A DNA stretch of 63,198 nt, the filler included, from Dugesia japonica (Eukaryota), in the NCBI GenBank assembly GCA_001938525.1. It is 6 parts of 6 records of this genome, joined end to end, with 100 filler letters (N's around TTAATTAATTAA, not from the genome) between each part and the next. Parts side by side here need not be neighbours in the genome. Positions count along the whole stretch, not along the records: positions 31,552 to 42,221 come from MQRL01576281.1; 5 more parts are not named here. One strand, given 5' to 3'. Below the pieces are notes generated by a model. That model did no database searches, was not told the DNA's origin, and saw nothing but the letters and a program-made list of their open reading frames with translations. Below, piece by piece: positions 5,791 through 49,640 of this stretch. Position 1 is the stretch's first letter; the number at the start of each line of letters is the position of its first letter. Position numbers and translations under genes: made by a program.

Positions 5791-5942
5791 TTATTAAATA
5801 TAAAATTGAAAACTAAAGATATTATTAGAGCAATTAACAAAAAATAAATAAAATATTTTTGATGTTGAACTTTTGAATTTAATTTTCTTGTGTTATTTAT
5901 AAAACTTGTCAACTCATTAGTTTTTATTTCTACGACCATTTC

Positions 5943-6308
5943 TTAAAGCAATTGTTTAGATTTTGCTTTTGTTCTACGTAAAGCATTTAATACTATTGTA
6001 TTTTTATTTGCATCTTGTTCACTTTTTTTAGTTGTAATTAATTTATTAATTTTTTCTTCATCGTATTCATCCATACTAATTATTTTTTCTTTTAATACAC
6101 CATTTTCCATTTTTAAATCAGATATTGTATCTCTTACCACAACCATTGCTTCTTTATATAATTGATATTGAGGAAAAACATTTCTTAATAATACATCTTT
6201 TTCTTTTGCAGAAGAATGTACTACCGTCTTATAATCATCGTTTAATTGTTTTCTCAACTCTTTGTCTTGTTTGATATCTTCCAATAAATCCTCCATTTTA
6301 TAAAGCAT
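5943..6308 (-). CDS. Polinton hypothetical coiled-coil protein
   Basis: Intact ORF overlapping the upstream gene, same strand as the capsid block. Confidence 0.5.
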   Translation of the reverse strand: MLYKMEDLLEDIKQDKELRKQLNDDYKTVVHSSAKEKDVLLRNVFPQYQLYKEAMVVVRDTISDLKMENGVLKEKIISMDEYDEEKINKLITTKKSEQDANKNTIVLNALRRTKAKSKQLL

Positions 6309-6840: not shown

Positions 6841-6974
6841 TAGTACTTTTTCTATAGCAAAATAATAGCCACTTTGTAGGCACTTTATAGCCGCTTATTA
6901 TTCCTCTTAAATTCTTATGTAAAATTTTTTATGCAAAATCTTTGCGCTCGACATTTTTTATAAAATATTTTTCA

Positions 6975-11708: not shown

Positions 11709-12428
11709 ATGGCAGATATTCGCAATTGATCACACAAGCAATATAAAATTCTCAAGCAGATAGATTTATGCAACAAAGATAATGGAGATAATGTTGATTC
11801 TATACCTAATAAAGGATACTAAGAGTTGTCAATCGTCAATCAAGCCTATACACTGAACTATATGGACAATTTGAATATGTGTATAGTTAATAAAGCAGAG
11901 ACAATAAAAAGAGAATACAATCTGGAACCGTTCATGAATCCCTTGAAAGAAATATCTAACAACGAAATTTTGTTGTATCGATATAAGTTTGGGAAGAAAC
12001 TTCAAAAGGGTTTTCATGCTTTGATAGAAATTCAATTTTTTGATATTTTGGTGGTAATATTATTATTAATATTAATACAATAATTATTATTTAATTAGGT
12101 ATTAAGAAAAGAAGAAAGAATTAAAAAACTTCAATTCGATCTAAATGGTCTTGAAAACATGACATTTTTGATGAAAAACTTGGTAAGGTTTTGTGAAATT
12201 GATCCGCCAACAGTAGCTATCGAGATTTATAAGGAAGAAAAAGTAAACATTACTAATAAATTGAACATGGACATACAAAATCAGAGTTCAGAGATAATCA
12301 GTATAAACAGTACAAATGTTAAAATGCAANCTCTGCCCATTGTATTTGGTAAGCAAAGACAGTGTCGTGTGGATAGGAAAAAAAGCGGTAATATATTTTT
12401 TTATTTATGTAAATTTATTAATTATTAA
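11709..12428 (+). pseudogene. Intron-containing orphan gene convergent on polB
   Basis: ATG 11709 is in frame with ORF 11826 (two stops); a phase-0 45-nt GT-AG intron 12054-12098 joins it in frame to ORF 12159-12428. Confidence 0.6.
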
Positions 12429-13071: not shown

Positions 13072-15535
13072 CTACTTAATACTATAATGACCATATGGGA
13101 CACTGTTATTTTTACCTTATCATCTGTATTACTCAGTGCTATTTTGTTCGACTTAATGCTATACAATTGATGATTTTTGGTGGTTATTCGAAATTTTTCC
13201 ACCGAGATTGATTTGTTCTATTATAACAGTCAAAGTAAGACTAATGAGAGATTTCTGTGTTCTTCAATGATATGCCATTTGGCCCTCATGCTGTTCTTAT
13301 CTCCGAGCAAGCTATAGCATTTCGGCCTCAAAAATACCCACTCTTGATACTTCTTCCCTTTATTCTCATCTTTAAATTTTCCTATAACTATTACTATAGA
13401 GTAAATACTGTTACTATAAAGGGAATGATCTTTATCATAATTTGAAGGATCAAGTAGCTGATCTCTCACCATACTTGTTGTTATTTTTTCTAATTTAGTA
13501 TTTTCTATTTCTAGTAAAAACTATCTGTATCGCCGGCTACAATATTAATTTTTCAATTATATTCCTTCCTGTACTTATCCAACTCAATGTACTGAATTTT
13601 GTACATTCTCAATTTTGAGAGGTCAAGTATAGTTTGTCCTATGAAGCTTGGATGATCTAAACAAACTATGTCCTTATTGAGAAGAACCACTATCAAATCA
13701 TCAACAATTTTGGTAGCTTTCTTAAATCCGGCTTTTGATGTATGTAATCAGCTTTTTTGCTAAATTACAAAAGCGCAAATTGATCCTGTTCTTGAGATTC
13801 TCAACTGATTTTCCCTATAGACTGTTACTTAACTGTTTACAATAATTTTTATCCAATTCCGAAACACAATTTGATCTGAGAATTGTGTTGGTGTTGATAT
13901 AATTCTCGAATATTGCTGGCTAGCTGAATTGAACTCCTCGATGAACCTCTATTACTTAAACTGTTAAACTTAAATACATTTGCTGCAATCTCCAGTGCAC
14001 TACGTTATTGTTCTTGAAATAGGGCGTTAACATTAATTTCTTTATTTTACAACCTGGATCCCTTCTATGTTTTGCTGCAACCGGAAAATCATTCAAATAA
14101 TCATGAATTTCTGCAGGAATCACCATGTCTACCTCTAAAGTGTATCCATATGGTAATGAATCTAGATCTACATTCTTACACTCTTCCAAAACCCTATCTA
14201 ATCCATCATAAATCCATTCAAAATTTGCTAAGGGCAACTTTTGACTAAGTGCTTAACCATATAGATTATTAATATCTATATACAACAAGTCAACATTTTC
14301 ACTAGTGGCAACATGGTGATTATTAATGAATTTTAACCCTCCTCTTATACCTTCTTCGTAAAAGGTGTACATATCGTTATTTTGGAGCAACTCAATTGTT
14401 TTTTCTATTGACTTCAATGCAAATGCTCATGACATACCAGGTATTCAGAAAAAAATTCAATGGCTCCAAGTTGTTGTGTGCTACAGACTTTGCACAGAAT
14501 TGCTGAAAATATCAGCTAATAAATACACATCCATCTTTAAATATAACACCAAATAGTCCAACAAATTTGTACAGCTGAATATTTCCCACATCGATAATGC
14601 TTTTTTATACTCTTACCTACTAATATCCTCTCATTTTGGTGGCATTTGCTTTGTTTCTTCCCAAACCTGTAAGCTTGTTGCAAAACTGTACGAAAATATC
14701 CCTTTGGCTTCGTAATAATCTGATTCATAAACTTCTCTGTAGTCAAAGGTGTCGCTTTTAAGGATCTAACAACAAAGTCCAATGAGGAATTTATGAACTG
14801 ATAGCTGTTGATGAACTTAATTGTTGTTTTATTTTGCCGTCAATTAAACATAGAAATTTTTCTGATGTTGTTGAGATGCATGATATTGCCCAATTCCTGA
14901 ACTTATTAATAACATACTTCAGACTATGATGAAGATTAAATCCTCGTAAATTATGAAAGACCACTGGTAGTTGAATATGCAGTTGTCTAATTAAATTGCA
15001 TTGATTACATGCTGCTCTTCTATATTTCTCTGTGAAATGGTCGTGGTCACGAACGGGATATCTTATTTCTTTCTTGCATAAGTAACAAATTTTTGCAGCT
15101 CTAAATTCTTCATCTTGAACCTTTGTTATTATAATTTTCATTTTTCCTTTTGTTTCATGATAAGGAAATACAATATTTTCACTTATTTCCTCCACAGCCT
15201 TTAAAAACTTATACACACAGTCATCTCCAATAAATTGTCTGTTTGTTGATTCGTTGGTAAAAGTACTAATCAACAATAGACTAGCCGAAACGGGTAAATG
15301 TTTCTGGAAATGCTTCTCGTCTGGAAGAAAAACCGATTCAAAGTCAGCATATATCATGAAAGGTGGTGTTATTGTTTTCAAATAATCCTTAAAGATTAAA
15401 TTCTTCTCCGATTGCATGGTATACATTGTGGAACCTGTCTGGATTTTTTCGCAAATTGGTTCATGCTTTTCATAAGCTACTCTATTTTTTAACCTATTGA
15501 GATACTTAGGACACCATGTTGATTAAATACGAACA
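13072..15535 (-). pseudogene. polB: Protein-primed family B DNA polymerase (Polinton type), 5'-truncated and frameshifted
   Basis: IYADFES (ExoI), CYLC..VRDHDH..AACNQCN, VVFHNLRGF, GIRGG, YIDINNLYG (motif A), K.LSNSL.GKSVEN (B), GDTDS (C), GKFKDE, FLRPKCYS, ALSNTDDK, PYGHY. Confidence 0.95.
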
Positions 15536-16482
15536 AGTAGATAGATTGGAGTGCACTGATACAAATCCACCCGGGGGAAGAAAAAATTTTTGTTTCAGAA
15601 ATTTGATTGGCTGCAAACATGTTTTCTAGCATTTGAACGGTAAAAAATTTTTGGTGTGTGATAACGTAGTTACAGTTTTGTCAGTAATACTGCAATTCGA
15701 TTGGTCGATTTTTTTCCATTTGTTGATGATGTCATGATAACGCAATGACAATAAATTGTTACGTAACTGTTACGTAATTATTATTTGTTTTAATTGATTG
15801 AATATTTATGATTTTCTTTGTCTAAATCAATTGCATTTATATATATTTTTAATTTAAATTAACTGAAATTAATGATTTTTTTGTTTAAACTAATCGAAAA
15901 TAATTATTTTTTTTGTTTAATTTAAGTGAAATTAATGATTTCTTGATTAAAGTAAATGAATGATATTTTAAATAAATTTTTTCGCTGGTAATATTAATAT
16001 TAGCCGCGCCTGTCAATATTAATATTAAATTTCTCCGGCAATGTTAATATTAACATTTAATTTCTCCAAACAATATTTACATTAGTGGCTCAGGTTTCGT
16101 ACTAATGGATGTTTTTGTGTTCATACTATGAGATGTTGGTTGGAAACAGTATTTGTTATAGGGTACAAACTATGAGATGTCTATGAGTATGCACTCTTGG
16201 CAGTAACCGACATTAGATCCTCCCTGAACAAACCATTTAATTCTCCTGACATTAGATGTTCACAGTTCTATTAATATTAGCTGCTCACCCAAAGAATTGA
16301 TTACTACTTCAAGGAAAATCATTTTTAATATTTATATTTATGTAAAATTACTCTTCGTCTTAGTATAATTAATGAAATCAGTATATTATTTGCATTCTTA
16401 TTAAAATTATTATCAATAATATCATTAAAAATTATTTTCATACATTGTTTCAATAACAGTTTTGATTGAATTCCATACCATT

Positions 16483-16790
16483 AAATTACCTCCTCCGACA
16501 TGTACAGTCCGACGGACCGAATCCATCAAGGTCCGTTAACATCCAATCGAAGCCGTTCATAATTGAACTTATCGATAAGCTTGTGTAGTTTTAACTAGAC
16601 TAAGCTCGATTATAGTATGTACATCTCTGGCAGCAATGCTTCCAACCGTTCACATCCGTTCTCAAATATAAATTGCTATAACTGTATAATTTTTATAAAA
16701 TAAAAACAGTTAGTCTTTAACGCTAATATTTGGCTAGACTCAGATCCACAAATTGGTAAAGAATTCAAATGTCAACTGTTATTAACTAAA
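16483..16790 (-). pseudogene. Relic of a small spliced orphan gene, copy 1 (homologous to 35583-35870)
   Basis: NSLPICGSESSQIL..GCERLEALLPEM..LKLHKLIDKFNYERLR..IRSVGL ending at a GAG|gtaat donor. Confidence 0.55.
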
Positions 16791-17459
16791 TCTTTAGATT
16801 AAATCATTACAGACAATTATTTCTTGTTATCATTAAGGAAAAGCATTACTAAAATTTTATTTAGTTAAATCATTTAAGAAAAACATTATCATTTAAATAA
16901 AAGTATTAAAACGCAATTTAAATAAAATAAATTCTTACTTATTTTCAAAGTTCATAATAATAATCATAATTCGTAATACGTTACCATATCTCCAATAACT
17001 TAAATCCTCTCATTAAGAATTCATAACAATTATGATCTGAAAATCAATTTATTAACTGAAATAAATTATTAATTTTAAAAATCATTAACTTTAAATAAAA
17101 TCGTTACGAAAATTATTACAATTTACGAAAATCATTACCGTTTAATTTCAATAAAAATAAATCCTTACTTATTTTCATAATTTATCAAAATTTATAATAA
17201 TATTGATCTAAATAGATTTTCATATTATATGTATCACAATTCGTAATAGGTTTTTCTAAATAATCTAAAATAAAATAAATAATACAGCAATTTAAATAAA
17301 AAATATTACTTGATATTCTTAAAATAGCGAAATAATGATGAAATAATATGAAATTATTCCATTCAAGCTATATTTACGTAATATGTTTAAAACAAAATTA
17401 TTTATTAATAAATAATTGTTTAACATATTTTAATTAATATGATTTAGCAAAATCAATTT

Positions 17460-17885
17460 TAAAAATATTAATTTGAACTGATAAATTTTAAATTTTAATT
17501 TATACTAATTTTAAACTGTTTAATTTTGATTTGTATTAATTTTGAGCAGATAAATTTTGATTCATATTAATTTCAAACTGATATATTTATAATTATAAGC
17601 TGCTAAATATTGAATCATCTTAATTTCAAACTGATAAATTTTGATTTGTATTAATTTTAAACTGTTTAATTTTGTTTCTTTTTAAATTTAAGCAGATAAA
17701 CTTTGATTCATAATAATTATAAGCTGCTANACTTTGATTCATATTAATTTCAAGCTGTTAAATTTTGATTTGTATTGATTTTAAACTGTATAATTTTGAT
17801 TCTTATAAATTTTAAGTTGAGACAATTTGATTCTTATTAAATTTAAACTGTTAAATTCTTATCTTAAAATCTTATGAATTTTAAG
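17460..17885. repeat. ~31-bp degenerate tandem array
   Basis: Unit taattttaaactgtttaattttgatttgtat. Confidence 0.85.
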
Positions 17886-17889
17886 GTTT

Positions 17890-20125
17890 ATGATGAAAGA
17901 TGTATTTTCAATGATGAGTTCTATACTTTCTATATAGTTGTCTCTAACTTTCTTTGATGACTCATGTATTATCCTATATATTCTATGATGAAGTGTCTAT
18001 GTTTTGTGATGGAACTATAATTTTCCATGACAAAGTGATTATTTTCCATGTTGAAGTGTTTGTTTTCAATAATGCAACCTATATTTTACATGGTGATATA
18101 GAAATTTAGTATGTTTATGAATTTTGTGTGGTGAAATGTATTTTAAAAGAGATAAATTAGAAATTTCAATGTGATTAACTATAATTTTAGTGTGACGAAT
18201 TATAAGTTAAATTTGTTGGTTTGAAATTTTATCTGCTGACTTAGAAATTTTATTATTTTCTATTTAATCTTTGATTGCTAATGAATACTTCTGTGTAATT
18301 TCTAAGACTTTTAATAGAAATATACAATGTCTGAAATATTTTATTGACTTATATGTATTTTCTAATAAATTTCATGACTTCTATATACCGTTACCACGAT
18401 GAATTATAATTTAATGTACTGGTTTAGAAATTTAATGTGTGTACGTAGAATTTTACCGGGATTAAATGAAATCTTTGTGTAATGTGTTGCAATTTAAGTG
18501 TGATAGATTATAATGCTTATGTGATGAATTTATGTATAGAATTTGTATGTGTTGACGTTGAAATTTACTTGTTCAGTGTTAATTTTTATGACTCAAATTA
18601 GACTTTTGTGAGATGGATAATAATTTTAAACCGGTGACTTTAAAATTTCAATGTGACGAAATATATTTTTAGTGTGACTAATTATAAGTTCACTTGTTGA
18701 TTAGAGTTTATATGTAATGACTAATAAATTTTATGTAACAAACTAGACTTAGAAATTTAATGTATTGGCTTAGAAGTTTTATGAGATGTCATAGAAGTTT
18801 GTTTGATAAAAGTAATTTTGATGCATGGATTATAATTTTTATGTGTTGAGTTACAGTTTAGTGTGATGGATTATAAATTAAATTTGTTGGTTTAAATTTT
18901 TATCTGTTGACGTAGAAATTTTATTATTTTCTTTGTAATCTATGAATGTAATTGAATACTTCTGTGTAATTTTAAAAACTTTTAAATAGAAATATACAAT
19001 GTTTGAAATTTGTTTTGACTTATATGAATTTTTAAATAATTGTTATAACTTCTATATAACTTTAGCATGAATGAATTATCCTTTTTATGTACTGGTTTAG
19101 AAATTTTATGTGGCTACTTAGAATTGTACTATAAGGAATGAAATTTTGTGAGATAGAATGTAATTTTAGTGTAATGTGCTACAATTCTGTGTGATGGATT
19201 GTAAGTTAAGTATGATAGATTATAATTTTATATGTTGGCTTAGAAATCTCAATGTGATGAACTATAATTTTAGTGTTACAGATTATGAGTTTAACTGGCT
19301 GGTTAGAATTTTTATCTGTTGACTAAGAAATTATACGTAACAAACTAGAAATCATGTGCTGACTTAGACATTTTATGCCTTGGCCTATAAGTCTTATGAG
19401 ATGTCTAAGAATTTTGTCTGATTAAAAAGATTTTAATGCATGGAATTTAATTTTTATGTGCTGACTTACAATTTGTGTAATGAAATATAATTTTATTGTG
19501 TTGGATTACAGTTTAAGTGTGATGGAATGTAATTTTAGTTTGATGGATCATAACTTTTATATGATGACTTAGAAATGTTATGCGTTAAAAAGTTTTACTT
19601 TTTGAGTGTTAATTTTTATGCGTTAGATTAGACTTTTGTTAGACGGATCGAAATTTTAAAGTGTTTACTTAGAAATTTCAATGTCATGAACTACATTCTA
19701 GTATGACAGGTTATAAGTTTAACTTGATGGTTAAAAGTTTTATGTGTTGACTAAGAGATTTTCTGTGACAAAAGTAATTTTAGTGTCTGGATTATAATTT
19801 TAAAGTAATAACTTAAAACTTTCAATGTGATGAACAATAGTTTAGTGTGATTGATATTAATTTTTCTGATTGGTTTCAATTTTTTTTGTGTTGACTTGGA
19901 AATTTGATTTACTTTTTTATAATTTATGAAACTTTTTTAATAACTTTTATGTAATTTTTGAAATGTTTACTTAACTTCCATGTAATTTATGATAATTTCT
20001 CATGACTTATATTTAATTTTAATATAATTGAGTATATTTTTATGTAATGAAATGTAATTTTATGTATTGGCTTAAAGTTATTACATGTGGAGTGTTAATT
20101 TTTGTATGACGGAATGCAATTTGAG
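17890..20125. repeat. ~21-bp degenerate T/G-rich tandem array with higher-order duplications
   Basis: Units tgtgatggattataattttta and tgtgttgacttagaaatttta; ~18190-18440 repeated at ~18860-19110. Confidence 0.85.
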
Positions 20126-21000
20126 AGAATGCTAGTGTGGTGTGGGAAAAGTCAGTAATTGATTGTGAAAAGTGAGAGAATATTAGTAATTATAAGAGGA
20201 GATCATTGCAGAATGTGAGAATACCAATGGATAGTGTGAAAAGAGCAGTGGAAATGGAAGAATACTAGTAGACAGTGGGAGAAGATCAGTAGAGAGTGTG
20301 AAAAGAGCAGTGGATAGTGAGTGAATATTAGTGGATATTGATAGAATACCAGGGGGTAGAGAGAGAAAACAAGTAAACAGTAAGTGAAGACCTATGTAGA
20401 GAGAGAATATGAGTAAAAATCACAGAATACTAGTAGATGGTGTTAGAAGATCTGTTGGCAGTGAGCAAATACCATAAGATACTGAGATAACACTAGTGGA
20501 TGGTGATAGATTAGCAATGGATAGTGACAGAAGAACTGTATGAGTTAGATAAGACCAGTAAATAGTGAGAGGAGATGAGTAAAGAATTGTAAACAACCAG
20601 TGGATAGTGAGAGAATACCAGTGAATATCGAGAGAATATAAGTAGAGAGTGGAGATTACATTTGGATAGTGGCAGAAAACCTTTATAGAGTGTGAGTAGA
20701 CCAGTGGAGAGGTACAGAATACCAGGAGAAGGGGTTGAAGACTAGTAAAAAGTCAGAGATGGCCTGTAGAGAGTAGTAGAATACTTGTAGAGAATAGGAG
20801 AATACCAGTGGATAGTAAAAGAATACCAATGTGGAGTAAACGAAAGCAAGTGAGTGTGACATAAGACCATCGAAAAGTGAGAGTTATGAAGTAATTATGA
20901 GAGTAAACCTGTGAAAAATAGTTAAAACCTAGTAAGAATGAGAAACGGCTAGCGAAGAGCGAGAAAAAACAGTTAAGAAAGTGTGAAGAGCAAGGGAAAT
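20126..21000. repeat. ~21-bp degenerate purine-rich tandem array
   Basis: Unit ccagtggatagtgagagaata. Confidence 0.85.
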
Positions 21001-21034
21001 AAAAACTGTAAATACTTATATTGTTGGGAAATCA

Positions 21035-21605
21035 CATGATCATAATATTGGTCAGTGAATATTCACATTAGTATAACCCATGAGATGTTAACATTGACAT
21101 TGATATTATCATTGTTATTGCCCGGTGAATGTTAACGTCAATATTAATATTAATATTACCGGGGGAAGAATACATTAACATTAATATTAATATTGCCCAT
21201 ATGATGTTAACATTAATATTAATCTTAACATTAAAATTGTCCAGCAATTCTTTTATTCTGCAATAGAAATATCTCTTGGCAATGAAAATATTCCATATAC
21301 ACAATGGGTTTTCTTTCACTCTCAACTGACTTTCTCTCACTATATCTAACATCATTTGAGAACATCATGATCCAAATATTGGCCATTGGATATTAACATT
21401 GCCATTGATATTATCATTAATATTGACTGGTGGATGTTAACGTTAATATTAACCTTAATATTAATATTGCTCGGGGATGTAACCATTAACATTAATATTA
21501 ATATTTCCCGGGGAGGTAAACATTAATATAAATATTAATATTGCTGACGAAATTTAATGTTAATATTAATATTGACAGGCGCGGCTAATATTAATATTAC
21601 CAGCG
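21035..21605. repeat. Subterminal array of AATATT/GTTAAC palindromes separated by short GC-rich spacers
   Basis: gttaacattaatattaatatt(gcccgg..) units; mirrored at 15985-16085, related copies at 22245-22345 and ~39660-39690. Confidence 0.75.
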
Positions 21606-21945
21606 AAAAAATTTACTTACAATATCATTCATTTACTTTAATCAAGAAATCATTAATTTTACTTATATTAAACAAAAAAAATAATTATTTTCGATTAGTT
21701 TAAACTAAAAAATCATTAATTTCACTTACCCGTTAAATAACAAACTTGTTATTATTGTGTAATCATGACATCATCAACACATACAAAAAATCCACCAGTC
21801 AAATTGCAGTATTACTGACAAAATTACGTAACCACACAACAAAAAATTTCAACCATGCAAACACTAGCAGCTAATCAAATTTCTGACACGAAAAATTTTT
21901 CTATCCCCGAGGGGGGATGTTTGTATCAATGCGCTACTATCTACC

Positions 21946-22400
21946 TAGATAGATATGCAGTGGTGCACGGGAACACCCTCCCCTCGAGAGAAATTTTTTT
22001 TCGGCCGATTATTTTTTCATTATATTTTCTTCATTTTTTTGTTTAAATGAAGTGAAGTTAATTATTTTGTTTTAATGAAGTAAAATTCTCGATTTATTGT
22101 TTAAATTAACGAAATTAGTTATTCTTTGTTTTAATTAATCTAAATTAAGTGATTATGAATAATGTTTGAGTTTCTTCATGGAAAAGTTACTGAAAAGCTT
22201 ATGTTTGGTTAAATTAAACAAAATTCATCGAATGTGATTTTATCCCCGACAGTATTAACATAAAATATTCCCTCTTTCAATATTAACATAAAATATTTCC
22301 CCCGAGCAATATTAATATCAACAATAATCGCTCTAAGAAATATTAAGATTAGATACTTATCAGACAATGTTAAAAAATATATATAAAAAACAAAATGAAA
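21946..22400 (+). mobile_element. Third terminus of the same family, fused head-to-head to the right end of E1
   Basis: tagatagatatgcagtggtgcac..cccctcgagagaaattttttttcggcc followed by the same AT-rich and aatattaac subterminal blocks. Confidence 0.7.
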
Positions 22401-27600: not shown

Positions 27601-28260
27601 TTTAGTTTGAAACACCAAAAAAAATTATTTGTAAAAATAAATGAATTAAAATTTTGCAACATTTTTCTGAAAAGATTTAATGATTCAATAAAATTCATTT
27701 AAGAGACTATTTACATTTGTTATTTATTCTGCAAGATGGACCTTTGCCTGATTAGTGGAACCAGGTCATTTTCTAATATTCAAGAAAATTTAGTACGTTC
27801 AAGATTATTGTTGAAAAAACACTCAACAATTCTATTGCTGATATTTAACTTGAGTGTATTCATTTTTTTAGTACTATGTTTCTTATGTTTGCATATAACA
27901 TTTTTTGAATTTATGTAATTGATTTCTTTTATTTCCATTCTAAACGCTTCCATTATATTGACATCATCAATAAAATGTAGACAAATGTCTTTAAAAATAC
28001 ATATTTCGTTCTCTATATGCTTTTTATTCCAAATTAATTTAATTCTAGCTTTTCCTAGCTTTTCACTTTTTTCAGAAAATACTCCAGCTAGCATTACATT
28101 TGAAAATCAAATTTTAGGTGAGCCAATCTTCTTCCAAATTTCCTCACTCATCACTGAGACAGACGCTCCTGAATCCCATAACATCTCTACACTAATTCTA
28201 TTACGATTTGCACTTCTCCAATTGCTATCATCATGTTTTTGATACATCAGTTTAACATCA
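24670..28260 (-). pseudogene. pol: Gypsy pol (protease, RT, RNase H, integrase), multiply disrupted; AT-rich insert ~27200-27760
   Basis: LWDSGASVSV; WNSPLIIVPK; IYLDGILIF; FLGLTNYYRRFI; DTDGS..IGAVLSQ; NADRLSR; HKELCHLG; TDRGKIFE; NGLAERTIRT. Confidence 0.92.
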
Positions 28261-28362
28261 GGTCTTCTATCCATATCTCGATTTTTCTCTTTAAAGTTTT
28301 TCTATGCAATCTCACTGACGAAATGGGCACAGCGGGTTACTGGACATTTTTTTCATTATTTT

Positions 28363-29450
28363 CTAAGATATTATTGCATCATGTTTAAAATCAATTAAGG
28401 AGTCACATTCATTTAAGGATTCTTCCCTTTCTTGTTCTGCTATACATAATATTCNTTGGTTATTATGCCCTCTTTGTAATAGTGCANAATTTCTGAAAGC
28501 CNGGCNTTCTTTACCGCATATTAAACACCTATTTTTTAAAGTACAGTTTATTCTTCTATGGTTTGTTTCTCCACAGCAAAAACAAGCACCATGCTGTAAA
28601 AATTCTACACTTGGAGGAGCCTTACCATCAAATCTATTATAAATTTTTGTTGCTACATATTTCAGAGAATAATTTGGAAATTTTCTTCTTTTTTCTTCAT
28701 TTATATCTTTTAACTGTTGCATATTATTACCAATCGTTGAATCGTTTGTCGGTTTTCTAGAAATTGTATAATATTTTGGAGTATTTTCTTTGTGATGAAA
28801 ATATTGTCTTCCGTAATTATTTCCCATTTTATTAAATTTTTGTTCAAAAGCTGATTTCTTAATAGCACTTGCATAGCTTTCGTTGACATTTGCATTACTT
28901 TTCGCTACAAATTTATCGAGGTTTGCAGCCGATTCTCGACGTTTTTCGTCATTTAACTCTGGTTGGAGTGCAAAGGATTCTTTTAACTTTTCACTTCTTA
29001 ATCTATTCAGAATAAAAAATCTTGATATCTCCTCTGGTGATTGTCGGTTTTCAAATATATCGTGGACAAGTGTTTTTAATCTTATCGCAAAATTTCGATA
29101 TTTTTCATCAGTCCTTTGTTTAACTGATGATAGATCTGTAATTTTTCAACCAGCGATGTATCAATAATAAATTTTGATCGAAACTAAGTTTCGAAATTTT
29201 CATTTGTATTGAAGTCATCATTTGTGTTCGTTTCTTGCCACAATTTCTTGGCATCGCTTTGTATTAGAATATCAAATGCAAAAGAAATTCCATTTGATTA
29301 AATATGACAAATTTCTTGGAGGTTTAAATTCAATCTTTAGCAGTATCTGAAGAACCATAAAAAATGTAAGCTTCGGAATAAGCATTTCTTGAGTAGCTTG
29401 TGGACGATTTTTAAAAATCTTTTGTCGCTCTTCTTTCCTTTGCCTAGTAA
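28363..29450 (-). pseudogene. gag: Gypsy gag with two CCHC zinc knuckles
   Basis: CFCCGETNHRRINC and CLICGKExxAFRNx. Confidence 0.85.
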
Positions 29451-32788: not shown

Positions 32789-34339
32789 GATATTCTAAAA
32801 TATTTTAGTTATTTAAATCGAAATTAAGTGTTTATAATTATCCCTTGATAATTTAAAACAAACATACATTACATTTATTTTTAAGAATATTTTATATTTA
32901 TATAATTAATAACTACTTTTAATGTTATGTTTAAATGTTTCTTTGAAAATTTTTTACTAATTTTAATTTTATTAATTTAATATTTGTAAAATAAATTTTT
33001 TTTCTTATGAAGTTAAAATTAGCTTTCTTATAGGGCATTGGTAAAAATATTTTATAAAATATATTTTTAATTATTTTAATTTGAAAAATGTAAAATGAAA
33101 TATCATTCAATTAATAAATAAAATCAAAATTTTGATTTAAATATAAAATTAGAGAAAATAGATCATTATCACTTTCTTCGTTTGTTTAAATATTCTAATT
33201 ATAATTGATAAATTGTCGTAAATTTATTGAATTGTTTATTTTAATAATTTTATTGTTTTTTCTAATTTCTTCTACATATTATAGAAATTTTGATTAAATA
33301 TTTGCATTAGTATTTGAACTCACTAGATTTTAAATTCTTTTTATTAAGTAAAACCGATGTTTTACATACCAGGAAATATCATTGCAATTTATCAAATTTA
33401 ATTATTTTCTAGAATAGAACTAGGAGACTTAGAAATGATAGAACCTGTACACTGGCTAAATTATAAAATAAGTACATAGTAAAATAGATCGTGTGATTAA
33501 TTTTCAAAGCATGAGAATTTTTGAATGGTCAAAATTTCGATAAATTTGCAGTATTTATTGCTTGTATAATTTCATTTAATAACAGTGCGGTTAAAAATAG
33601 AATTTTTTAAAAAATATTACTAAAATTTTTGCAATTACAATTGATTTTTATTGTTTTAATATTAAATAAATAAAAATCTCAGATAAAAAAAGATTCTCTT
33701 TTATTTCTTATTAGAGATTCAAATTTTCGACAATAATTTTTTTAAGTGATTTAAGGGAATCATGTTGGACTTCCAATAAGAAATGAAAATAACATGTAAA
33801 CAATTTATTGAAACGTTTTTATTTATTTTATTTCTCAATTATTTTATTCAGTAATTCTTGTCTATTCATGCATTTTTATTTTTGATTTCTGAAATTTATA
33901 TCGAATTTATTTTTTAATAAAATTCAAATAAGAGTATTTTTACAATAACAATTATTGCGAAAATAATTGTTGGACTTTGATCGCATTTGAGATTTCGTTA
34001 AATTAAAAGCTTCGATCAAAATTTTGTTTATTTTTTTATGGAGGTTTTGCGATTCTGTGCAGTGAGTAAATCTAAAAAGAGAAAAAGTAAAACCTTGGTA
34101 AATAATGAATTATATTCATCATAATTTTATGATAGTTGTCTGTATAATTATTTACAGCTACACAAATTTAATATTTCAAATATATTTTGATTTTAAAATT
34201 GAAATATTTTTTTGAAACTTTTCAATTTTATTATTTTAATTTTGACACAAATGATAAAAATGAATTAGAATATTTTTGCATAGATAAAGTAAGAGGAAAG
34301 TACATTCAAATAGTATTTGATTATTCAATCCATCATACA

Positions 34340-34580
34340 AATTTCTAACTTAACTCAAAAAATTATAATTCAATACATAAAAATTACATAGAAGTCATTA
34401 AAAATTATTAAAGATTTACTAGAAGTTAATAAAAGTTTTCAAAAATTACATAAAAATCAATAGAAAATATCATTTGTCACGCTAAAAATGCATTCCATCA
34501 CATAAAAATTACAATCCATCAAACAAAAAATACATTTCATCACATAAAATTCTAAGACAGTACATAAAATGATAAATCAT
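34340..34580. repeat. Inverted piece of the 21-bp array found at 17890-20125
   Basis: cattccatcacataaaaattacaatccatcaaac is the reverse complement of the tgtgatgga(t/a)t units. Confidence 0.7.
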
Positions 34581-34581
34581 C

Positions 34582-34829
34582 AGTAGGTAGATTGGTCAGC
34601 ACGACCCCATCATTTTGATTGGTCATTTCTGCTACACTCCCCTCCACTCTCAGATCGATAGTTATTGATTTTTGATCTGAATTATTATTGATTTTTAAAG
34701 TGATTTTTTATGTGTAAGTTCGTTTTTCAGTGCTAGATTGATGGGGTTGGGGAGGTTGGAAAGGAATAGATAAGTGTGTGTTGGAATTGACCAATCAAAA
34801 TAATGAGTTCATGCTTACCAATTCACCGT
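34582..34829. repeat. ~250-bp fold-back inverted repeat (MITE-like or terminal hairpin)
   Basis: ggtagattggtcagcacgaccccatcattttgattggtca pairs imperfectly with tgaccaatcaaaataatgagttcatgcttaccaattcacc. Confidence 0.8.
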
Positions 34830-35582
34830 GGATTTGTTTAAATTAAGTCTAGTTGTTGGAATTTCAAATATTTTGTTTTAATTAACAAATAAATTAAGCG
34901 GGAAATTCAAACTTCAAAAAAAAATTCAAATAGTTTTTCTTTTTTTTGAAATTTTTTCTTCTTTTTTTTATGTCCTCTATCTTTTATTGATTTTTAAAAA
35001 TTTTTTATTGGGTTTCGATGTTGTATTGGAATAGGGATTTTTAATCTGTATCTGATGGCAGATAACTTTTTACAAAAATATTCCTGTTAGTTACAGTGAC
35101 GTGTTTTCAGATTTCAGTTAATTGGTTCCAGTGTTGCGATTTTTTTTGCATATGGATGATTTTGCTTTGATTGGAAGAGGAACACGGAGGAAAGGTGATG
35201 TTGAAAAGGTTTAGTAATTCCTATGTGATGGTGCATGTTTATGTGTAAAAAAATTTATTTTTTGAAAATCGCGACAGAATGAGTGACGGGTGATAATTTT
35301 CGGATTTCGAAGGTATATTTGAGTTTGCTAACAAAATCGGTCTATAGGTTGTCAAAAGTGACTATGAGCTAAAATGTTTGTGTGCTACATGAATGCAGCT
35401 TTTGTGTTGCAAAAATGAGTTTCATGTATATTTTTAAGGTTTTACGAGCTTGAAAAAATGAAATAAATCATTTATTAGATTTTTTTATAAGTTAATAGTA
35501 TAAATCAATAAATTATTAATAATAATTAATTATTTTTCATGCATTACTTCAGTAACAGTCTTGTTTTCTTTACATACCGTTA

Positions 35583-35870
35583 CATTACCTTCTCCCCATA
35601 CAACAGTCCAATAGAACGAATCTATTAAGGTCAGATAGCACACGATCGAGTCCGTTCATAATTGAACTTATCGACCAGTTTGCGTAGTTTTAAGTAGGCA
35701 AAGCTCGATTTACAGTGTGTGCATCTGTGGAAACAATGTTTCAGTCCGTTCACATCCGGACATAAATTGAACACCTACAATTGTATAAAAACAATCAGTC
35801 ATCATCGTTAATAATTGACTAGACTCAGATCCGCAAAATGGTAAGGAATTTCAACGTAATTGTTACTTAT
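35583..35870 (-). pseudogene. Relic of a small spliced orphan gene, copy 2
   Basis: NSLPFCGSESSQLL..GCERTETLFPQM..LKLRKLVDKFNYERTR..IRSIGL, AAG|gtaat donor. Confidence 0.55.
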
Positions 35871-37203
35871 TCAATATATGACATATTTTATATTATTTAG
35901 CACATATTAGACATCTTTGATAAATTTTTGACCATATTAATGGAACCTTTAATCTTCATAGACGATTTAATAATGGAACCTTAAATAAAATTGACTATAT
36001 AATTAATGAACCTTTAAATAACAGTTACCTATATCTCAATTTATAGTAAATTAACTTAAAAAGTAATATATATAAATTTAACATAGAAAAAAATATATTC
36101 TCACACTTTTTAATTCTCTATTTTAAATATGAAATAGAAAAATCCATATATTTATTGATTTTTTAATTTCATTACCATAAATCAAGATATGATAATAAAT
36201 ATTCCCTCAGTAAACAAATTTAGTTTAATATAATACGGTTTGATTCATTCAAATTTATAAAGTTTTGTAGGGTTTTAAAGAATTATATGAAATTGTTTTG
36301 GGCTGTAAAGATTTTTATTGAATTTTGTTATTAAATGATAAGATTTTATAGTATTTCGTGATTTTTAGGGGTTTTCCAGGTTTTTTTAGATTTTATATTC
36401 ATTATGGTTTCTATAAGAATTTTATTAAGGGTTTTTATATAGATTAAAGTATTATATGATTTTATATGGTCTTTATATAGTTTTATAGGACACTGCAACA
36501 CAAATTTATGTAACAAAAAACAATCTAACACGAATGCAATGAAAACAAAGAAAATGTAACATGAATGCAAGTACATAAGTAACATGGGTCATACCTGTTC
36601 AAGGAATGTAATACAATTGCAAGTTAGACAAATATAAGGGTTAATTATAAAGGGGTTTTTTGATTTACTAATCTTTTTAAGAGTTGACTAGAATTTTCCA
36701 TGGTTTTTAGGGTTTTCTTATAAATATTCCTCTTTGAGTTTCTAATAATAATCGTTATAATAATTATTAAATTAATAATATTAAAAATATTTAGAATATT
36801 GATTTTGTTTTACTGTTTCAATTTAATTAAAAAGCAGGTGTATGTTTTATTTCATATATAAACGAAGTACATGTTGGGTTCCATCATAATTTGAAAAAGA
36901 AGAAAGTAACTTACATGATCAAAATTCCCTTTTTAAAATTTCTTATAGAAATGGTGAACATATTTATAAGTTTCAATTATGTTGAAGTATAATTTTTGTT
37001 ATTTTCATTTATTTATCGAGTTTAATCATGATTTTATTAATTTGATTTTAATATAATATTACTTTTATGAGTTTTATTACCATTTTATATATTTTTAATG
37101 ATGATTATATTACAAATTATATAAGATCAATATACTTTTAGATAATTGTGAATTTTACAACTAATGTACTGGCACAAGACATAATTTTTGCTACCATGAA
37201 ACA

Positions 37204-39470
37204 ATGCAGAAATATTATAGTCTTATTTATTACAAGAAAAAAAATTTCATATGCCTTGCATGCACCTCACTGGGTTTAACTACATATAACAAATTTTATA
37301 GGATACATGCACATAACTTGACACAATGTACTGTTAGTAAAAAGCAATTATTATTGAAAATATTAGAGGAATATACGTGTAAGAAAATAAATTAGATTCA
37401 AAAGTGATTGCTGATGTGTCTAAATTAAATAAGGAACAAATAATTCTACCAGATAGTTTAATAGAAAATTTATTCCAAATAAATAAAGAAATGAAGAGTA
37501 TAAAAATACAATTTTGAATACATACAGAGTTTATCAAGGATGAAAAATTTAAAACATAGATTATCAAATAGAGCAGTCTCTTTAAGCAATAAGTATTTTG
37601 AAGAAGGTATCCCTTTATTGAATGAAAAGATTTTTATCAGGTCCGAGTTAGGAAGTATTTGAACACTATCTTGTATAATGAAATACGTTTTAAGATTAGC
37701 AATATAAGTAGACTTTCTGGAATCAGTTAACCTGCCATTGTAAACATTAAAAACAACGATAATCAATTATTCCTGCATAGTATTTTCTTATTCTTAAATG
37801 AGATTTAGTTGGTATGGATCAACACTATCGGACTGCAAAATATGAAGAGATTATGCCAGAACTTGTATTTAGTGATAAAGATATGTCAATGAAACTAAAG
37901 AATATCTCAAATTTCGAAAAGAATATCTCGGGATATTGCATCGTGGAACTTACAAGCATTTAAAGACGATGATGTTGTAATGAAACACTTCAATCTTGAC
38001 ATAATTTATAGATCTAAAATAATCGACGGAAGAAAAATAAATATACAACTATTTGAAAATGGACAAAAGCTTCATTGCATTGATGAAGTTAATTTAAATA
38101 GGCTTATAAACAGAGACATTAAGAAGATGGATTCTAATAAGGAATTTAAAGACTACTCAAAAGTAATAAGTCATCCATTCGGCATATACGCTGATCCTGA
38201 ATCAGTATTATCACCAGATGATGATTTATATCAAAAGCAAATAATTATTACAGCCGGATCTTTGTTAGCTGACAACTGCACTTATGAAACAAAATGGAAG
38301 TAGTTTATCGGAAGCAACTGTAATTTCAAATTTTTTAAAGAGATTGAAGAAATCAGTAATTCTAAGAAATCCGTGTATCCATATAAAAAAAAGTAAAAAG
38401 AAGAAGAATGTAACTCTGGAAAATTTCATTTCCTGCTACCCAAACCTATCATTTATTAGTAAATTCTATTGAAGACATATTGAAACACTCTTAAAATTGA
38501 CATTATGATTTCTAACAAACTCCAAACTTTTCGCAGTGACTTGCCCATCGCAGCGAACATCAATGTGCTCCGGGAAGCAAAGTTATTATTTTGACTCATT
38601 ATCTAAATATAAACTATTTAGTTCACTGGAGACTGCTGTAAATTTACTTGTAATTAGATGTGCAAGTTACAAAGATACACAGGACAGTCAGATTTTCACA
38701 ATACAATATTTTCAAGAACTACATCGACGAAAGTAAAAAAATAAGAGCCAAAAGCATGAATGAATTAAACAAAATTTACTATAAGCTTATACTCAAATTA
38801 GTTGAAAATCTGAAGAAAAGAATAAACTTGAGAATAAGCAATTCGGCCAAGAAGTTTGTGACCTAAACCTCAAAATAATGGTTTAGGAAAACCATTAAGA
38901 CCAATAAGGATTTAATAACATTCCAGCTAAATAAAGAAGAACATAGGACAAATAGTTCTTAATTTAATTAAATTTCGAATGTACCTGCTTCAATACATCG
39001 AGCTAAAGAAGTAAAAGAAACAAGAAATTTGAGAGATACAAATGGTACCTGGAAACACAGATGGCTTTTCCTCAAAGTTAGAAACATTAAAGTGAAAATG
39101 TTTTTTGTCACTAATGGTAAAAGACCGACTATTAGATACTTCAAATTACTCACGAGACCAAACTATTTACAGAATGGATCTAGATTTGGTTGTAAAAAGG
39201 TTTAAGGACGAAAATAAGAGAACAAAATACAAAAAATGGGTTTTCCTAATATCGAAATGTTATAGTCTCCTTAGCAAATCAAACAAAATTAAAGGCTAAG
39301 GCTACAAAAACCTTTCTCCAGTCTTCGTGAAACAATTTAGAATACGAACTAAAAATCACTAGTAGTACAGTTTCTTAGGACTCAAAGTCGCAATAACCAA
39401 CAATGACGACAAAGGAATGTCAACTGACAAAGACATAAGCGTACCATACGGTCATAATTCTATCTCGTAA
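37204..39470 (+). pseudogene. polB: Second protein-primed DNA polymerase B, heavily decayed, with an internal deletion of ~0.9 kb relative to copy 1
   Basis: FKDYSK..PFGIYADPES, DLPIAA, VHWRL, VENLKKRINLR, LLDTSNY, FKDENK..WVFLISKCYSL, NNDDK, VPYGH align with 13072-15535. Confidence 0.9.
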
Positions 39471-40073
39471 TAAATAAGACTAGAATGATAAAAACATATG
39501 TAAAAGTAATATAATTTGTTATTTGAAATTTTTAATCTTTTATTATTGAGATCTAATTTGCAACGAATATTCAGATTGAAAGGACTGCTAGTGTATAATG
39601 AAATGGCTGTACATATGGCTTGTATATGATTATTATTATTAATATTGTACGAGTACGCAAATGTTAACATTACCCTGGGAATATTTGCCTAACTACTTAA
39701 AAATTTGAAAATTTTAGTTAATTTAAACAAGAAATCATAAAATCAGCTAATTTAAACAAAATTAATAAACAGTACGTTATTATAAAAAGATTAGGTCAAC
39801 CACCCACGCACAAAACTGTAAAATCTAAAAAATCCGTAAATTGGCCGGTAAAAAAAATTTTCTCCGGTGTGGAGAAGTGTTATGATGCGCTACTATCTAT
39901 CTACTTTTGATATTTGGGTTTAAAATATTAAGTTTTAAAAGCATACCTGCAATTTTTGCAATTCAACTTTAATTATCTTTACATCTTAATTGTTTAAAAG
40001 AAAATTTTACGAAAAAAAATTCTTTTTTTACAAATTCAAATTAGATTCGCAGATCAAAATTAAAATATTGAAC

Positions 40074-46869: not shown

Positions 46870-49640
46870 AAATCTAAATTTATTTTTCTAAAGTTTGTAG
46901 CTAGTAAATATAGCAGACCACTAAAAGCTGTCAAACAAAACAAAAAAAGAAATGGAGGGAAAGTTTGTAAACGCTAATTGAAATCTTCCAAATCAGACCA
47001 TCTGGCTCTACTGCCATTGAATCTCTTCAAGAGTGCCAGCCTGTCCGTTGTGGAAACTTCAATTTTTACTCGACCAGGCTATGCATTTCCTTGTCGAGAC
47101 AAGAGCAAATTTTCTTATCACATTAGCGCGTAACCCAACCTGTTTTAGCACTGGTTCATGTTTAACACGCCAGGATTCCAGACACCCTACTGAGATCGTC
47201 TCAAGGAGAACTTTTCAATTTTGAAGGTTTTTCTGAATGTCCTCCTTCAGTGGTGTGTATTTATTAATTTTCAAGTTTCTCGCCAATTTTAGATTACTTG
47301 ATGTGTCGTAAGGGGTTTTCACATCCAGTAGGAAAATATGCTTCTTCCTAACATTAATAAGCTGTAAATCAACGCGATCAGTCCTATTAACAAAGTCACA
47401 GGTCCAATCGAGTATGACATTGAAGCTTGTATTAGCTCCAACAACCCTTGCAAGCAACTCAAGGACATCATTGTGGCTAATTTCAGTCCAAGTTTTTGTC
47501 GGACCGGTTACAAACTGGGATTTTTGCCCCCTTTTAAAATCCGGAGATGATAATTTCGACTACTATTGTGAAAGTAATCGGCTGAAACGTCATTATTAAT
47601 AAGCTCAAAGATCGCTTTTTGAGAGTGGTAAAACTTATTCCTGAGGTTGAGATCAATAAATATTTACCTCGACATTCTAAGTTTTATTTCCCCGCCAATT
47701 CTAAAGTTCAAATGTTTTGGTTTCATGTTTCTGATATAGTAGATGTAGCTATAGAGCATGTCCTTCCCTGTAATAATAATCTGAGTAATGCAGGAGTCAA
47801 TGTGAACAAGGCTGCCACTGTTTAGATGGGTATCCATAAAAGCATTGATTTGTTCATCACTGAACCAACTGCTATCAATAATCTCGGAAGAAGGATTATC
47901 CACAGTTGTGGGGAGTGAGGCAATTGTGGGAGCAACTGTGGGCCATAAACGTCATTTCTCATGAGATATGTGTTTTTCCTGGCTCTTGATTGCATCAGAA
48001 AAGGTTACACTATTTGCAATTTTGGCAGCATTGTAAATAGTAACGATTGAAGAAGCAGTATTTCCAATCTGCATTGTGGTTGCCTTACTATTTTAACTAC
48101 GCATGAAGATTGATTTAGGCGTAGATTTTATCCGTTTGTTATTATTGCTTTTTGATTTGGGATATTTTAAAAACTAAGCATAAGCAACAGCACTTTTTGA
48201 CGCACGAGGACTTTCAGAAATAGTCAGTTGACTAGAGATATGCATAGTATTAGTGGTGTCAGAACTTGAAGTTGGTAGCACTTTTGCTGGTGAGTTGGGA
48301 GCCGATTTATTAGCAAATATAAAAGAATCAAATACATTTCACTCCAAATCAGAGCTCTGAGCAATATTTTCAGTTTCAAGGGACGCCCATCCATCAAAAT
48401 AGCAGAGGTGTAAAGTAATGGGCGATTGAGAAATGTCCACAAAAATTTCATCCTTATCTGCAATATGTGGAGAAGGTATGTCCTGATTATGATCAGCAAT
48501 AGTGTCAGGGACAGGGAGTTCTTCAACAGCTATAACTAATTTATTGTTTCTGCGCTTAATTGTCTTTCTTTTTTGCTTAAATTTGGTTATCAGTCCAGGT
48601 TTATGATAATAGATAGTATTAATTTGAATATTCTTTGATAAAACATTAATTTTAAATACAGAGTCATTGAATTCATAACCATTGTTAGCGGTTGTGACAC
48701 CAGCAGTGTTGCATTGAGATGTATTAGTAAAATTATTATTATCTAAGATTTGCAAGTGTTTGTTATTGCTATTATATAAGTTTAGATAATAATTAGAATT
48801 AATTATTTTAGAATTTTTAGAATAAATGACAGCAGATTTATCATGAAAAGATTCTACATTAGAAAATTTATTGCTATTATAGTCATTTCTAGTAGATTTG
48901 CTATAATTTACTGAGTTCATATATTCATTGTTTAAAAATGAGCTAGAGGAGTTTGAATTTAAAACCGGGAAAGTATCCAGTACGAATCACTGGTAATTAA
49001 CTTGCTACTCCAACATGTGCATGATATATCTCATAAAATTTTTTTTATGACTATCTTTTCTCCAACTAAATTTCAGTCTATTTCATGCTAGTTTATTGCT
49101 TTGAACATTCCTCTCTAGGCAGCCGGTAGTCTATTGTTTCAGCTCCAGTTGGGCGACAATTTCGATCCTCAATTCACAACAATACTTTAATATCTCAATG
49201 ATTGAGTCAGTTGACAGTCTATTTCGATTCAGCTCCAACTGCTCGCTAATGTGAAGGTTCTCAGTCAGAATCCCATGATTCAGCTGATGTGTAACTACGA
49301 CGCTACCCGCGATCGCATTACCAAATAAATTTCTTAAAGCCCACAACACTACTGATGCCACACTTGGGGTTAACTATTGTACCATCTTGTCAACAGTGAG
49401 TCCTCTGATCGCAAGATACCACGGACAATTTGCGGCCTTATCCTACCGGGATTTTTCACCCTAAAATCTAAAACTCTGTAGAGCTATTGGTAGTTAGCTG
49501 TAGGGAGTGAGTGTCAAGGCGCACTCACGCCAACCAAACGCCATAAGTGGTCAGCTTAAAAAATGCGATGCTCATTGCCGGCTCCCTCGTTTATTCCCCA
49601 TAGAATTCGTGAGTTTATCTAGCCTTGACTAAACTCCATT
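46870..49640 (-). mobile_element. Internally deleted RLE-type non-LTR retrotransposon (NeSL-like): N-terminal region, Ulp1-like protease remnant and restriction-like endonuclease; RT absent
   Basis: SHNDVL..RVDLQL..IFLLDVKTPYD..ARNLKINKY..ISVGCLESW (RLE); WFSDEQINAFM (Ulp1-like start) only ~400 bp upstream. Confidence 0.78.
49502..49636 (-). ncRNA. Candidate pseudoknotted 5' leader RNA of the RLE element
   Basis: Four stems, three abutting with zero-nt junctions, plus 8-bp loop-loop complementarity GUCAAGGC/GCCUUGAC. Confidence 0.5.

Follow-up and report, generated by a model that had tools for sequence, protein, structure and literature searches.

A 5.3-kb unit with AGTAG-type ends (E2) lies in the window, the whole 63,198-nt stretch of Dugesia japonica DNA analysed here, and raises the question of what kind of element leaves a polB gene between such ends without integrase or virion genes. 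A first-pass annotation had grouped it with a similar unit (E1) as a compact, polB-only mini-Polinton family, and proposed either a size-constrained, self-replicating unit dependent on a helper or one segment of a multipartite virus. We therefore examined the ends, genes, relatives and abundance of E2.

Ends, junctions and polB of E2

The features of E2 and its left flank are as follows.

34327-34581, minus strand: left flank of E2, a 21-bp repeat array resembling the interior of E1
34582-39905: the E2 unit, 5.3 kb, with AGTAG-type ends
34582-34595, plus strand: left terminus (AGTAGGTAGATTGG), a 14-mer of the same type as the left end of E1
34586-34827, unstranded: local inverted repeat with 44-nt arms, 82% complementary, lacking homology with E1's terminal inverted repeat (TIR)
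35512-35865, minus strand: E2 copy of a block shared with E1, the most repeated portion of E2 in the runs
37204-39455, plus strand: dead Polinton-type protein-primed polB without about residues 526-866 of its relative P0002 (junction 38378-38478)
39718-39905, minus strand: right terminus with a TIR remnant that has homology to the TIR of E1 and E3

The left 14-mer AGTAGRTAGATTGG is common to E1 (15536) and E2 (34582), and a 15-mer recurs near the right ends (21929-21943 in E1, 39885-39899 in E2); two matches were found for each, against 0.03 and 0.01 expected, respectively, these counts being post hoc, with patterns derived from the matches themselves. As the first-pass annotation claimed, E1 and E2 lie on different scaffolds, no match to integrase, ATPase or capsid falls within either, and no target-site duplication (TSD) was found at the two units. 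The distinct right end that it described holds for the terminal ~20 nt, where left and right differ in both units, but the E1 ends are the arms of one TIR. The E2 right end is homologous to this TIR (z 7.4-7.5), and the left end shows no homology to it past ~20 nt (z 0.4-1.1). A TIR of 100-1500 bp with AG/AGT-type ends is thus present in E1, and in E2 the right arm alone belongs to the E1 TIR family.

E2 sits in a host chromosome, both ends being joined to their flanks at single-copy depth, which gives no support to the suggested extrachromosomal or plasmid status. The left junction is bridged by X4 record 18 (34296-34752, depth 7.3, 21 gaps) and the right junction by X1 record 7 and X2 record 16; in three studies, the junction-spanning contigs have depths of 6.6-8.3, matching the unique flank. 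An apparent absence of molecule-end pile-ups was left out of the argument, because assembled contigs cannot reveal free molecule ends. Two contig joints, 39906-33395 and 33126-37214, are tentative hints.

The E2 polB matches P0002, which contains DNA_pol_B_2 (E 2.7e-32) and Endonuclease_7 domains, at E 3e-66. Relative to P0002, it has 22 stops, at least three frame changes and a 924-nt gap (~0.92 kb) in which the exonuclease core and polymerase motif A are gone; X2 and X4 contigs read through this deletion with one difference each. Judged by its sequence, the E2 polB is non-functional, and the loss of motif A together with the 22 stops speaks against self-replication. That E2 carries polB alone stands insofar as polB is its sole identified gene, but the gene is broken. 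Similarly, the predicted ~0.9-kb deletion agrees with the 924-nt gap, but a second deficit of 162-198 nt brings the summed length to ~6.4 kb, not ~6.2 kb.

Related units and the shared block

The window contains further elements to which E2 can be compared.

2004-5439, minus strand: capsid-bearing Polinton from a different lineage, lying on a separate scaffold, with ATPase-like, integrase and DJR capsid ORFs
11709-12410, plus strand: orphan gene relic, convergent with the E0 polB; a 15-codon insert is read as a 45-nt intron
13075-15535, minus strand: E0, a second polB relic of the E2 clade (residues ~401-1211, 15 stops), cut at the E1 left end
15536-21946, plus strand: E1, a gene-poor element with an imperfect ~0.5-kb TIR, about 63% tandem or sub-repeats
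16409-16781: E1 copy of the shared block
21947-22350, plus strand: E3, a third terminus and TIR remnant, fused head to head to the E1 right end

The E1 TIR arms are identical at 376 of 414 aligned nt, with the differences mainly in the first ~20 nt. Neither polB nor structural genes were found in E1, and stop counts gave no clearly open frame when its repeats were read as a decayed long ORF. Stops are rarer in all minus frames at 20036-21085. E0, absent from the earlier annotation, abuts the E1 left end; no terminus was found within 3 kb behind its polB, and with the missing 5' part it would be longer than 6.6 kb and still not reach an end. The notion of a "polB-only" family is not supported by either unit, E1 being without polB and E0 combining polB with another gene and having no nearby end. 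Nor do two units show a size constraint, because the 6.4 kb of E1 is ~63% repeats. The units are nested in one another's remains: E1 cuts E0 and adjoins E3, and the E2 left flank is an E1-type internal repeat; among the matches listed for the right flank, none is to an E1-type repeat. The proposed helper dependence is reasonable, since short Polinton relatives without integrase and capsid would depend on a helper for mobility; the Polinton at 2004-5439 is a possible helper type.

A 375-nt block with 74.7% identity is common to E1 and E2, at a distance of 874 and 931 nt, respectively, from their left ends. It had been described as a common minus-strand exon relic ~1 kb from the left end; the block is indeed there, but without a coding signal. 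Its substitutions show no codon-position bias (19/20/17, p 0.88), and the best frame has 12 synonymous changes against 8.5 +/- 2.6 expected (p 0.12). No match was obtained in Pfam for the block as protein, by phmmer across 1.84 billion proteins for one frame, by word search for a second frame, or in Rfam. The block is 4-10 times as deep as polB, each taken at its best-covered listed positions and with an 80% cut-off at which the decayed E2 polB recruits fewer relatives. Given this greater depth, many carriers are likely without polB, like E1.

The polB clade and its capsid-bearing members

In three single-frame trees, built by a quick-tree method (one with FastTree) from sequences other than those of bidnaviruses, the E2 and E0 polBs share a clade with L006 and L015 (support 100, 99 and 99). 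Virion genes occur in cis on 4 of the 17 contigs fetched for the wider Polinton clade. L015 encodes an rve integrase, an A32 ATPase and a DJR capsid, the last named via the Atlas alone (0.98, 225 of 256 features), with no Pfam and no PDB sequence match. L006 and L017 have capsid and protease matches, L012 has a piece of a protease, and in L017 the genes are co-oriented in the order capsid-protease-polB. The first-pass annotation had suggested checking for any link between the clade and capsid or integrase; for the wider clade, the answer is positive (L006, L015 and L017). The nearest sub-clade consists of P0001, P0002/P0058 and P0003/P0070 (support 83-93), and the capsid-bearing loci fall outside it. 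Five of the 14 members of the P0002 cluster are on 5.70-5.73-kb contigs and one is on a 6.65-kb contig; the P0003 polB is on a 6.56-kb contig. Near-identical polBs from the same clusters as these short ones are on contigs of 11.3 and 12.6 kb (P0002 cluster) and of 15.1 kb (P0070).

In IMG/VR, the P0002 query returned no loci, the polB alignment query returned four, none of them inside the E2/E0 clade in the trees, and two DNA motifs, one of which fits the E1 right end only, returned none. A search of GTDB yielded 10 loci at 26-36% identity, and phage records gave no match.

Origin and abundance of the family

Based on the junction contigs, the polB lesions and a clade with capsid-linked members, we consider that E2 is probably a decayed deletion derivative of a Polinton/Maverick, from an abundant non-autonomous family. 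The many carriers likely without polB, and E0 with its further gene, also count for this reading. The parent would have had virion and integrase genes, with polB reading toward one end as in the L017 order, and a central block would have been lost from it. Derivatives may then have spread in trans, with full-length elements supplying the enzymes for copying and insertion, because the AGTAG-type ends of the derivatives would be used both as protein-primed replication origin and by the integrase as its substrate. The TSD may have been erased afterwards by decay and rearrangement. E1 would represent the same process further along, with polB lost too and repeats expanded. Read in this way, E2 is an ordinary fossil, most animal Polinton copies being broken: degradation affects 96% of the Maverick loci in vertebrates (PMC8097293), and the available text of bioRxiv 2024.01.15.575659 describes 10 loci in C. 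elegans strains at which pPolB and TIR occur without an integrase. Several findings count against this reading: unlike in a simple deletion of a TIR element, the E2 left arm is not the mirror of the right arm; the TSD is absent; the capsid-bearing Polinton of the window is of another lineage; and capsid-bearing loci lie outside the nearest sub-clade, with its recurrent 5.70-5.73-kb contigs.

The non-homologous arms and absent TSD would also fit a composite of two derivatives, one supplying the left arm and the shared block and the other a polB-plus-TIR remnant, with the two fused through deletion or nested insertion. The flanks agree with this, the left one being an E1-type repeat and the right one having no listed match, as do the odd junctions on both sides of E1 and a linker near single-copy at 36303-36305 (depth 11-15). 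However, the left 14-mer, the right 15-mer and the block's position and orientation all recur in E1, and low linker depth is weak evidence because AT-rich linkers diverge fast. We regard a composite as unlikely.

It is just as unlikely, in our estimate, that an animal Polinton sub-clade was split into ~6-kb asymmetric-ended units, namely polB units (the 5.7-kb contigs, E2) and gene-poor units with the 375-bp block as a cis element (E1), which were amplified to thousands of copies, both kinds being fossil remains of a polintovirus that was multipartite or a satellite. Should the 5.7-kb contigs of the nearest polB relatives prove to be complete units, they would connect Polintons with bidnavirus-like genomes as a segmented or satellite form.

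Under a stricter version, which appears quite unlikely, E1, E2 and E0 would be endogenized parts of a polintovirus whose genome was divided into ~6-kb segments; as in bidnaviruses or Drosophila Vesanto virus, these segments would share their termini, and polB would sit on one type and accessory or structural genes on others. Shared terminal motifs with different interiors, the missing TSD and the 5.70-5.73-, 6.56- and 6.65-kb contigs are in its favour, and, according to the available part of PMC8363768, Vesanto virus can have as many as 12 segments (3.3-5.8 kb) whose terminal repeats are similar and several of which carry PolB. It is weakened by the capsid-linked wider clade, which is monopartite where visible (L006, L015 and L017). 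Moreover, the same polB clusters include the 11.3-, 12.6- and 15.1-kb contigs, E0 would exceed 6.6 kb without an end, E1 is without a structural gene, and IMG/VR yielded no member of the clade in two motif scans and two polB scans. In the literature from 2019 on, we found no report on multipartite Polinton-type viruses.

Very unlikely is a satellite or linear plasmid that was limited in size, carried polB only, replicated itself and borrowed capsid and integrase, with E2 as a decayed inserted copy. PolB is indeed the only identified E2 gene, the conserved AG-rich ends fit protein-primed replication, and a dead copy leaves room for intact ancestors; transpovirons are a precedent for an element that has lost its structural module, and linear plasmids with pPolB are known, as stated in the accessible portion of PMC11161782. 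Nevertheless, the polB is dead, the contigs are locus-specific at single-copy depth, E1 has no polB, E0 is not polB-only, and the size match concerns two units, one of them mostly repeats. It is extremely improbable that the layout is a coincidence and the 34582 end no more than an unrelated MITE at 34586-34827: the 82% inverted arms, a fold z of -2.43 (2 of 200 shuffles equally good) and the missing E1 TIR homology would suit it, but the terminal AGTA falls beyond the arm, the 14-mer agrees with the E1 end, and repeat depth runs beyond 34827 as far as the shared block, with 8-39 contigs at 35028-35445.

Animal Polintons/Mavericks encode pPolB, an rve integrase, a DJR capsid, penton, ATPase and protease, and have a TSD of 5-8 bp. 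E1 and E2 show neither rve integrase, virion module (MCP, penton, ATPase, protease) nor such a TSD, and polB is present as a relic in E2; they resemble Polintons in the pPolB clade, AG/AGT-rich ends, the E1 TIR of several hundred bp, chromosomal insertion and degraded copies. They differ in length (5-6.4 kb vs 13-25 kb), in the end motif (AGTAG(A/G)TAG vs (AG)3 or (AGT)2) and in left and right ends that diverge over the first ~20 nt. Polinton ends without intact replication or integration genes, and genomic repetition, were both found, as expected for a non-autonomous derivative. Polinton-1N1_DR, a Repbase-type name, is a non-autonomous Polinton; in the literature, "nonautonomous Polinton" and "non-autonomous Maverick" were not found as terms, and few papers appeared under other name variants. 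Like the C. elegans pPolB-plus-TIR remnants, as far as the available preprint text describes them, the present units are short, integrase-less and retain their ends, but they have an apparent abundance far above the locus numbers given for vertebrates, a conserved 375-bp block and a repeat-filled interior. In Bidnaviridae and Vesanto virus, too, the units are close to 6 kb, have related termini and in some cases carry PolB, but these are free segmented ssDNA viruses, whereas E2 is chromosomal, no structural segment was found, and its polB nests among capsid- and integrase-linked Polintons in trees made without bidnavirus polymerases. Transpovirons and pPolB linear plasmids share a small linear replicon design without virion genes; the former differ in a pPolB-helicase fusion and giant-virus helpers, and the latter are extrachromosomal with an intact polymerase, whereas E2 is inserted and dead.

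The 375-bp block and the left/right terminal difference appear to be kept across subfamilies with differing TIR interiors. If real, they may mark candidate cis signals for Polinton replication, packaging or integration.

The ends, the shared block and polB each recruit many divergent contigs in all three contig sets. By this apparent abundance, in which summed contig depth does not equal copy number, the family seems far commoner than Polintons usually are; vertebrate Mavericks have a median of 8 and a maximum of 287 loci (PMC8097293). In one of seven raw RNA runs, 28 of 2458 aligned reads were at least 99% alike, a result neutral on expression.

Termini and layout of the E1 and E2 units

The window joins short scaffolds of an AT-rich eukaryote, probably an animal, through N-flanked linkers. 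It holds the following features.

13075..15535 (-): E0, a second polB relic
15536..21946 (+): E1, a gene-poor element
21947..22350 (+): E3, a third terminus/TIR remnant
34582..39905: E2, the polB-bearing unit under study
16409-16781 in E1 and 35512..35865 (-) in E2: a block shared by both

The first-pass annotation had proposed shared termini, and both the 14-mer of the left end and the 15-mer of the right end matched exactly twice in the window, always at the ends of E1 and E2 (0.03 and 0.01 expected, in a post hoc test whose patterns derive from the matches themselves). As it had also stated, no TSD flanks either unit, and neither contains a match to integrase, ATPase or capsid. Beyond the end motifs, E1 and E2 have in common a 375-nt block (74.7% identity) and a 52-nt TIR sub-repeat. 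The block, described earlier as an exon relic, is indeed present in both units; its exon status is unproven. Substitutions are even across codon positions, synonymous changes are not significantly in excess in any frame, and no homologue was found in the two frames searched as protein or in Rfam. The block could be either a former exon or a cis signal.

The two ends of E1 are arms of one imperfect TIR (376/414 aligned nt identical). With 60 resamples per comparison, the E2 right end falls in this TIR family (z 7.4 against E1 left, 7.5 against E1 right and 5.9 against E3), and the E2 left end showed no homology to the E1 or E3 TIRs beyond its first ~20 nt (z 0.4-2.1). That E2 is a composite is unlikely. 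A difference between left and right in the terminal ~20 nt is present in both E1 and E2, and is the most unusual real feature here, though seen in two examples only. The E1 right end is fused head-to-head to the E3 terminus (21930-21965), each apparently lacking the terminal AGT, which could reflect either two joined element ends or an insertion event at one end. A further AGTAGGTAG start occurs at 51640 (-); its homology to the E-type ends is unconvincing.

A decayed polymerase among Polinton remains

The E2 polB aligns to residues 138-525 and 867-1225 of P0002, an intact relative with DNA_pol_B_2 that served as reference for both E2 and E0, and 924 nt are missing between the two stretches. 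Against this reference, E2 carries 22 stops across four aligned segments and at least three frame changes, and the deletion spans the motifs at P0002 positions 563, 592, 641, 734 and 821, which we take to be exonuclease II/III and polymerase motif A. The E2 polymerase is dead. Because contigs from two run-derived sets matching E2 (X2 and X4) cross the deletion with one difference each, it is not an assembly error. If a second deficit (162-198 nt) is added as well, E2 sums to about 6.4 kb. E1 is also 6.4 kb, about 63% of it repeats (intervals set by hand). The size constraint suggested earlier is not shown, since there are only two such lengths and E1's is mostly repeats. The E2 polB is enclosed almost exactly by a 29-nt inverted repeat (86%; 37214-37242 and 39458-39486).

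The E0 polB (P0002 residues 401-1211, 15 stops) is cut by the E1 left end. Behind it lies a convergent orphan gene, and no AGTAG terminus was found in the 3 kb up to the scaffold end. The E2 left flank is an E1-type internal repeat. Together these make up a nest of Polinton remains.

11709-12410 (+): orphan gene relic beside the E0 polB; likely 45-nt intron; 6 homologues, 38-86% identical; Pfam gave no family that passed its cut-off
395-6894: Polinton of another lineage; open frames for ATPase-like, integrase and DJR capsid proteins, plus several further unknown ORFs

Intact vertebrate Mavericks are reported to be intronless. The capsid-bearing Polinton lies on a separate scaffold (E 2.7e-11 for DJR; E 9.4e-7 for rve, which falls short of the Pfam cut-off; ATPase by tblastn only), from which both polB and a terminus are absent. 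LTR-retrotransposon remains (RVT_1 and Integrase_H2C2 matches) and a likely non-LTR endonuclease fragment, recognized by eye, were seen at 25412-29145 (-) and 47215-47559 (-).

The polB clade and the origin of E2

A metagenome scan returned 293 relatives, 80 of which were kept; 17 of them (L005-L021) share 39-54% identity with P0002, and 16 of these 17 were placed in a tree. Three single-frame pieces were each given a tree of their own (105-189 columns; one quick IQ-TREE, two FastTree); E2, on a long branch, and E0 group with these relatives in a single clade (support 100, 99 and 99). Linkage to virion genes, raised as a check in the first-pass annotation, occurs in the wider clade, in cis in 4 of the 17 contigs; the other 13 (1.1-4.1 kb) are uninformative on linked genes. 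L015 carries capsid, protease, integrase and A32 ATPase, the L015 capsid being assigned from the Atlas (0.98, 225/256 features, recognition value below the Atlas threshold). L006 carries capsid and protease; in L017 a capsid end and a protease run in the same direction as polB; L012 has a protease piece. The orientation of polB relative to the virion genes differs between L006 and L015 on the one hand and L017 on the other. None of the 17 contigs has an AGTAG-type end. L015 also encodes a TATA-binding-protein-like domain (10321-10779 (-); PF00352, E 2.7e-17), in a Polinton of the E2 clade. L006 (4834-5238) and L017 (527-1030) have in common a small ORF between protease and polB (32% identity), which resembles a DEDD exonuclease by eye and has no Pfam match.

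Published sources describe Polintons as 15-25 kb long (PMC6431247), with TIRs of 100-1500 bp and TSDs of 5-8 bp (bioRxiv 2023.08.22.554363), and define them by pPolB plus integrase (PMC5499653). E2 does not qualify as a complete Polinton; it matches a non-autonomous derivative in a decayed state. Of vertebrate loci, 96% are degraded; the median count is 8 per genome, and defective copies numbering in the hundreds are termed perplexing (PMC8097293); C. elegans strains hold 10 loci with pPolB and TIR and no integrase (bioRxiv 2024.01.15.575659); an integrated PLV had no detectable integrase (PMC11296320); and non-autonomous copies are apparently absent from Anolis (PMC3014272). In the openly accessible literature, Repbase aside, we found no described non-autonomous or multipartite Polinton family beyond names.

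Building on the observed lesions, insertion, clade and gene linkage in other clade members, we postulate a full-length parent, mobilization in trans and an order of events: a full-length Polinton would have been stripped of the central block that holds the integrase and virion genes, its ends and the shared block would have sufficed for copying and insertion in trans, and the E2 copy would afterwards have lost polymerase function and TSD. Overall, we consider this deletion-derivative mechanism reasonably probable. It is weakened because the nearest relatives of the E2 and E0 polB (P0001, P0002/P0058 and P0003/P0070; support 83-93) are known by the lengths of their contigs alone, with 11.3, 12.6 and 15.1 kb among them, and 5 of the 14 P0002-cluster members are on 5.70-5.73-kb contigs (5700-5725 bases), others being on 11.3 and 12.6 kb. 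A segmented or satellite nature is, taken jointly, unlikely; that E2 is one of several segments, for which Vesanto virus offers a precedent (PMC8363768), is by itself quite unlikely.

Chromosomal state and abundance

E2 words are present in 7 runs of one organism from 3 studies, with contigs mapped from 3 of the 7 and raw reads from 1 of 7 RNA runs. Among the 24 pieces listed, one contig (X4; 21 gaps) bridges the E2 left end to its flank, two (X1, X2) bridge the right end, and none spans the whole of E2. The assembly itself may derive from one of the three studies. Junction contigs have depths of 6.6-8.3, similar to the unique flank, and E2 is chromosomal. With chromosomal junctions at single-copy-like depth and a dead polymerase, E2 itself does not qualify as the linear plasmid proposed earlier. 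Transpovirons and linear plasmids are a precedent for loss of the virion module (PMC11161782); a satellite or plasmid is a very unlikely reading of E2. That the E2 left end, which contains a local 44-nt inverted repeat, is a MITE is hardly credible.

Summed contig depth, which is not copy number, was 3-5 x 10^5 in the shared block, 1-6 x 10^3 in polB bins and 1-5 x 10^3 at the ends; in the right flank it was 7-60. Where each is best covered among the positions listed, the block is 4-10 fold deeper than polB, whose decay in E2 reduces its recruitment. These data suggest a large family, many members of which, like E1, have the shared block and no polB. A separate, very abundant short repeat at 33859-34111 and about 23000-23045 is present in RNA reads too.
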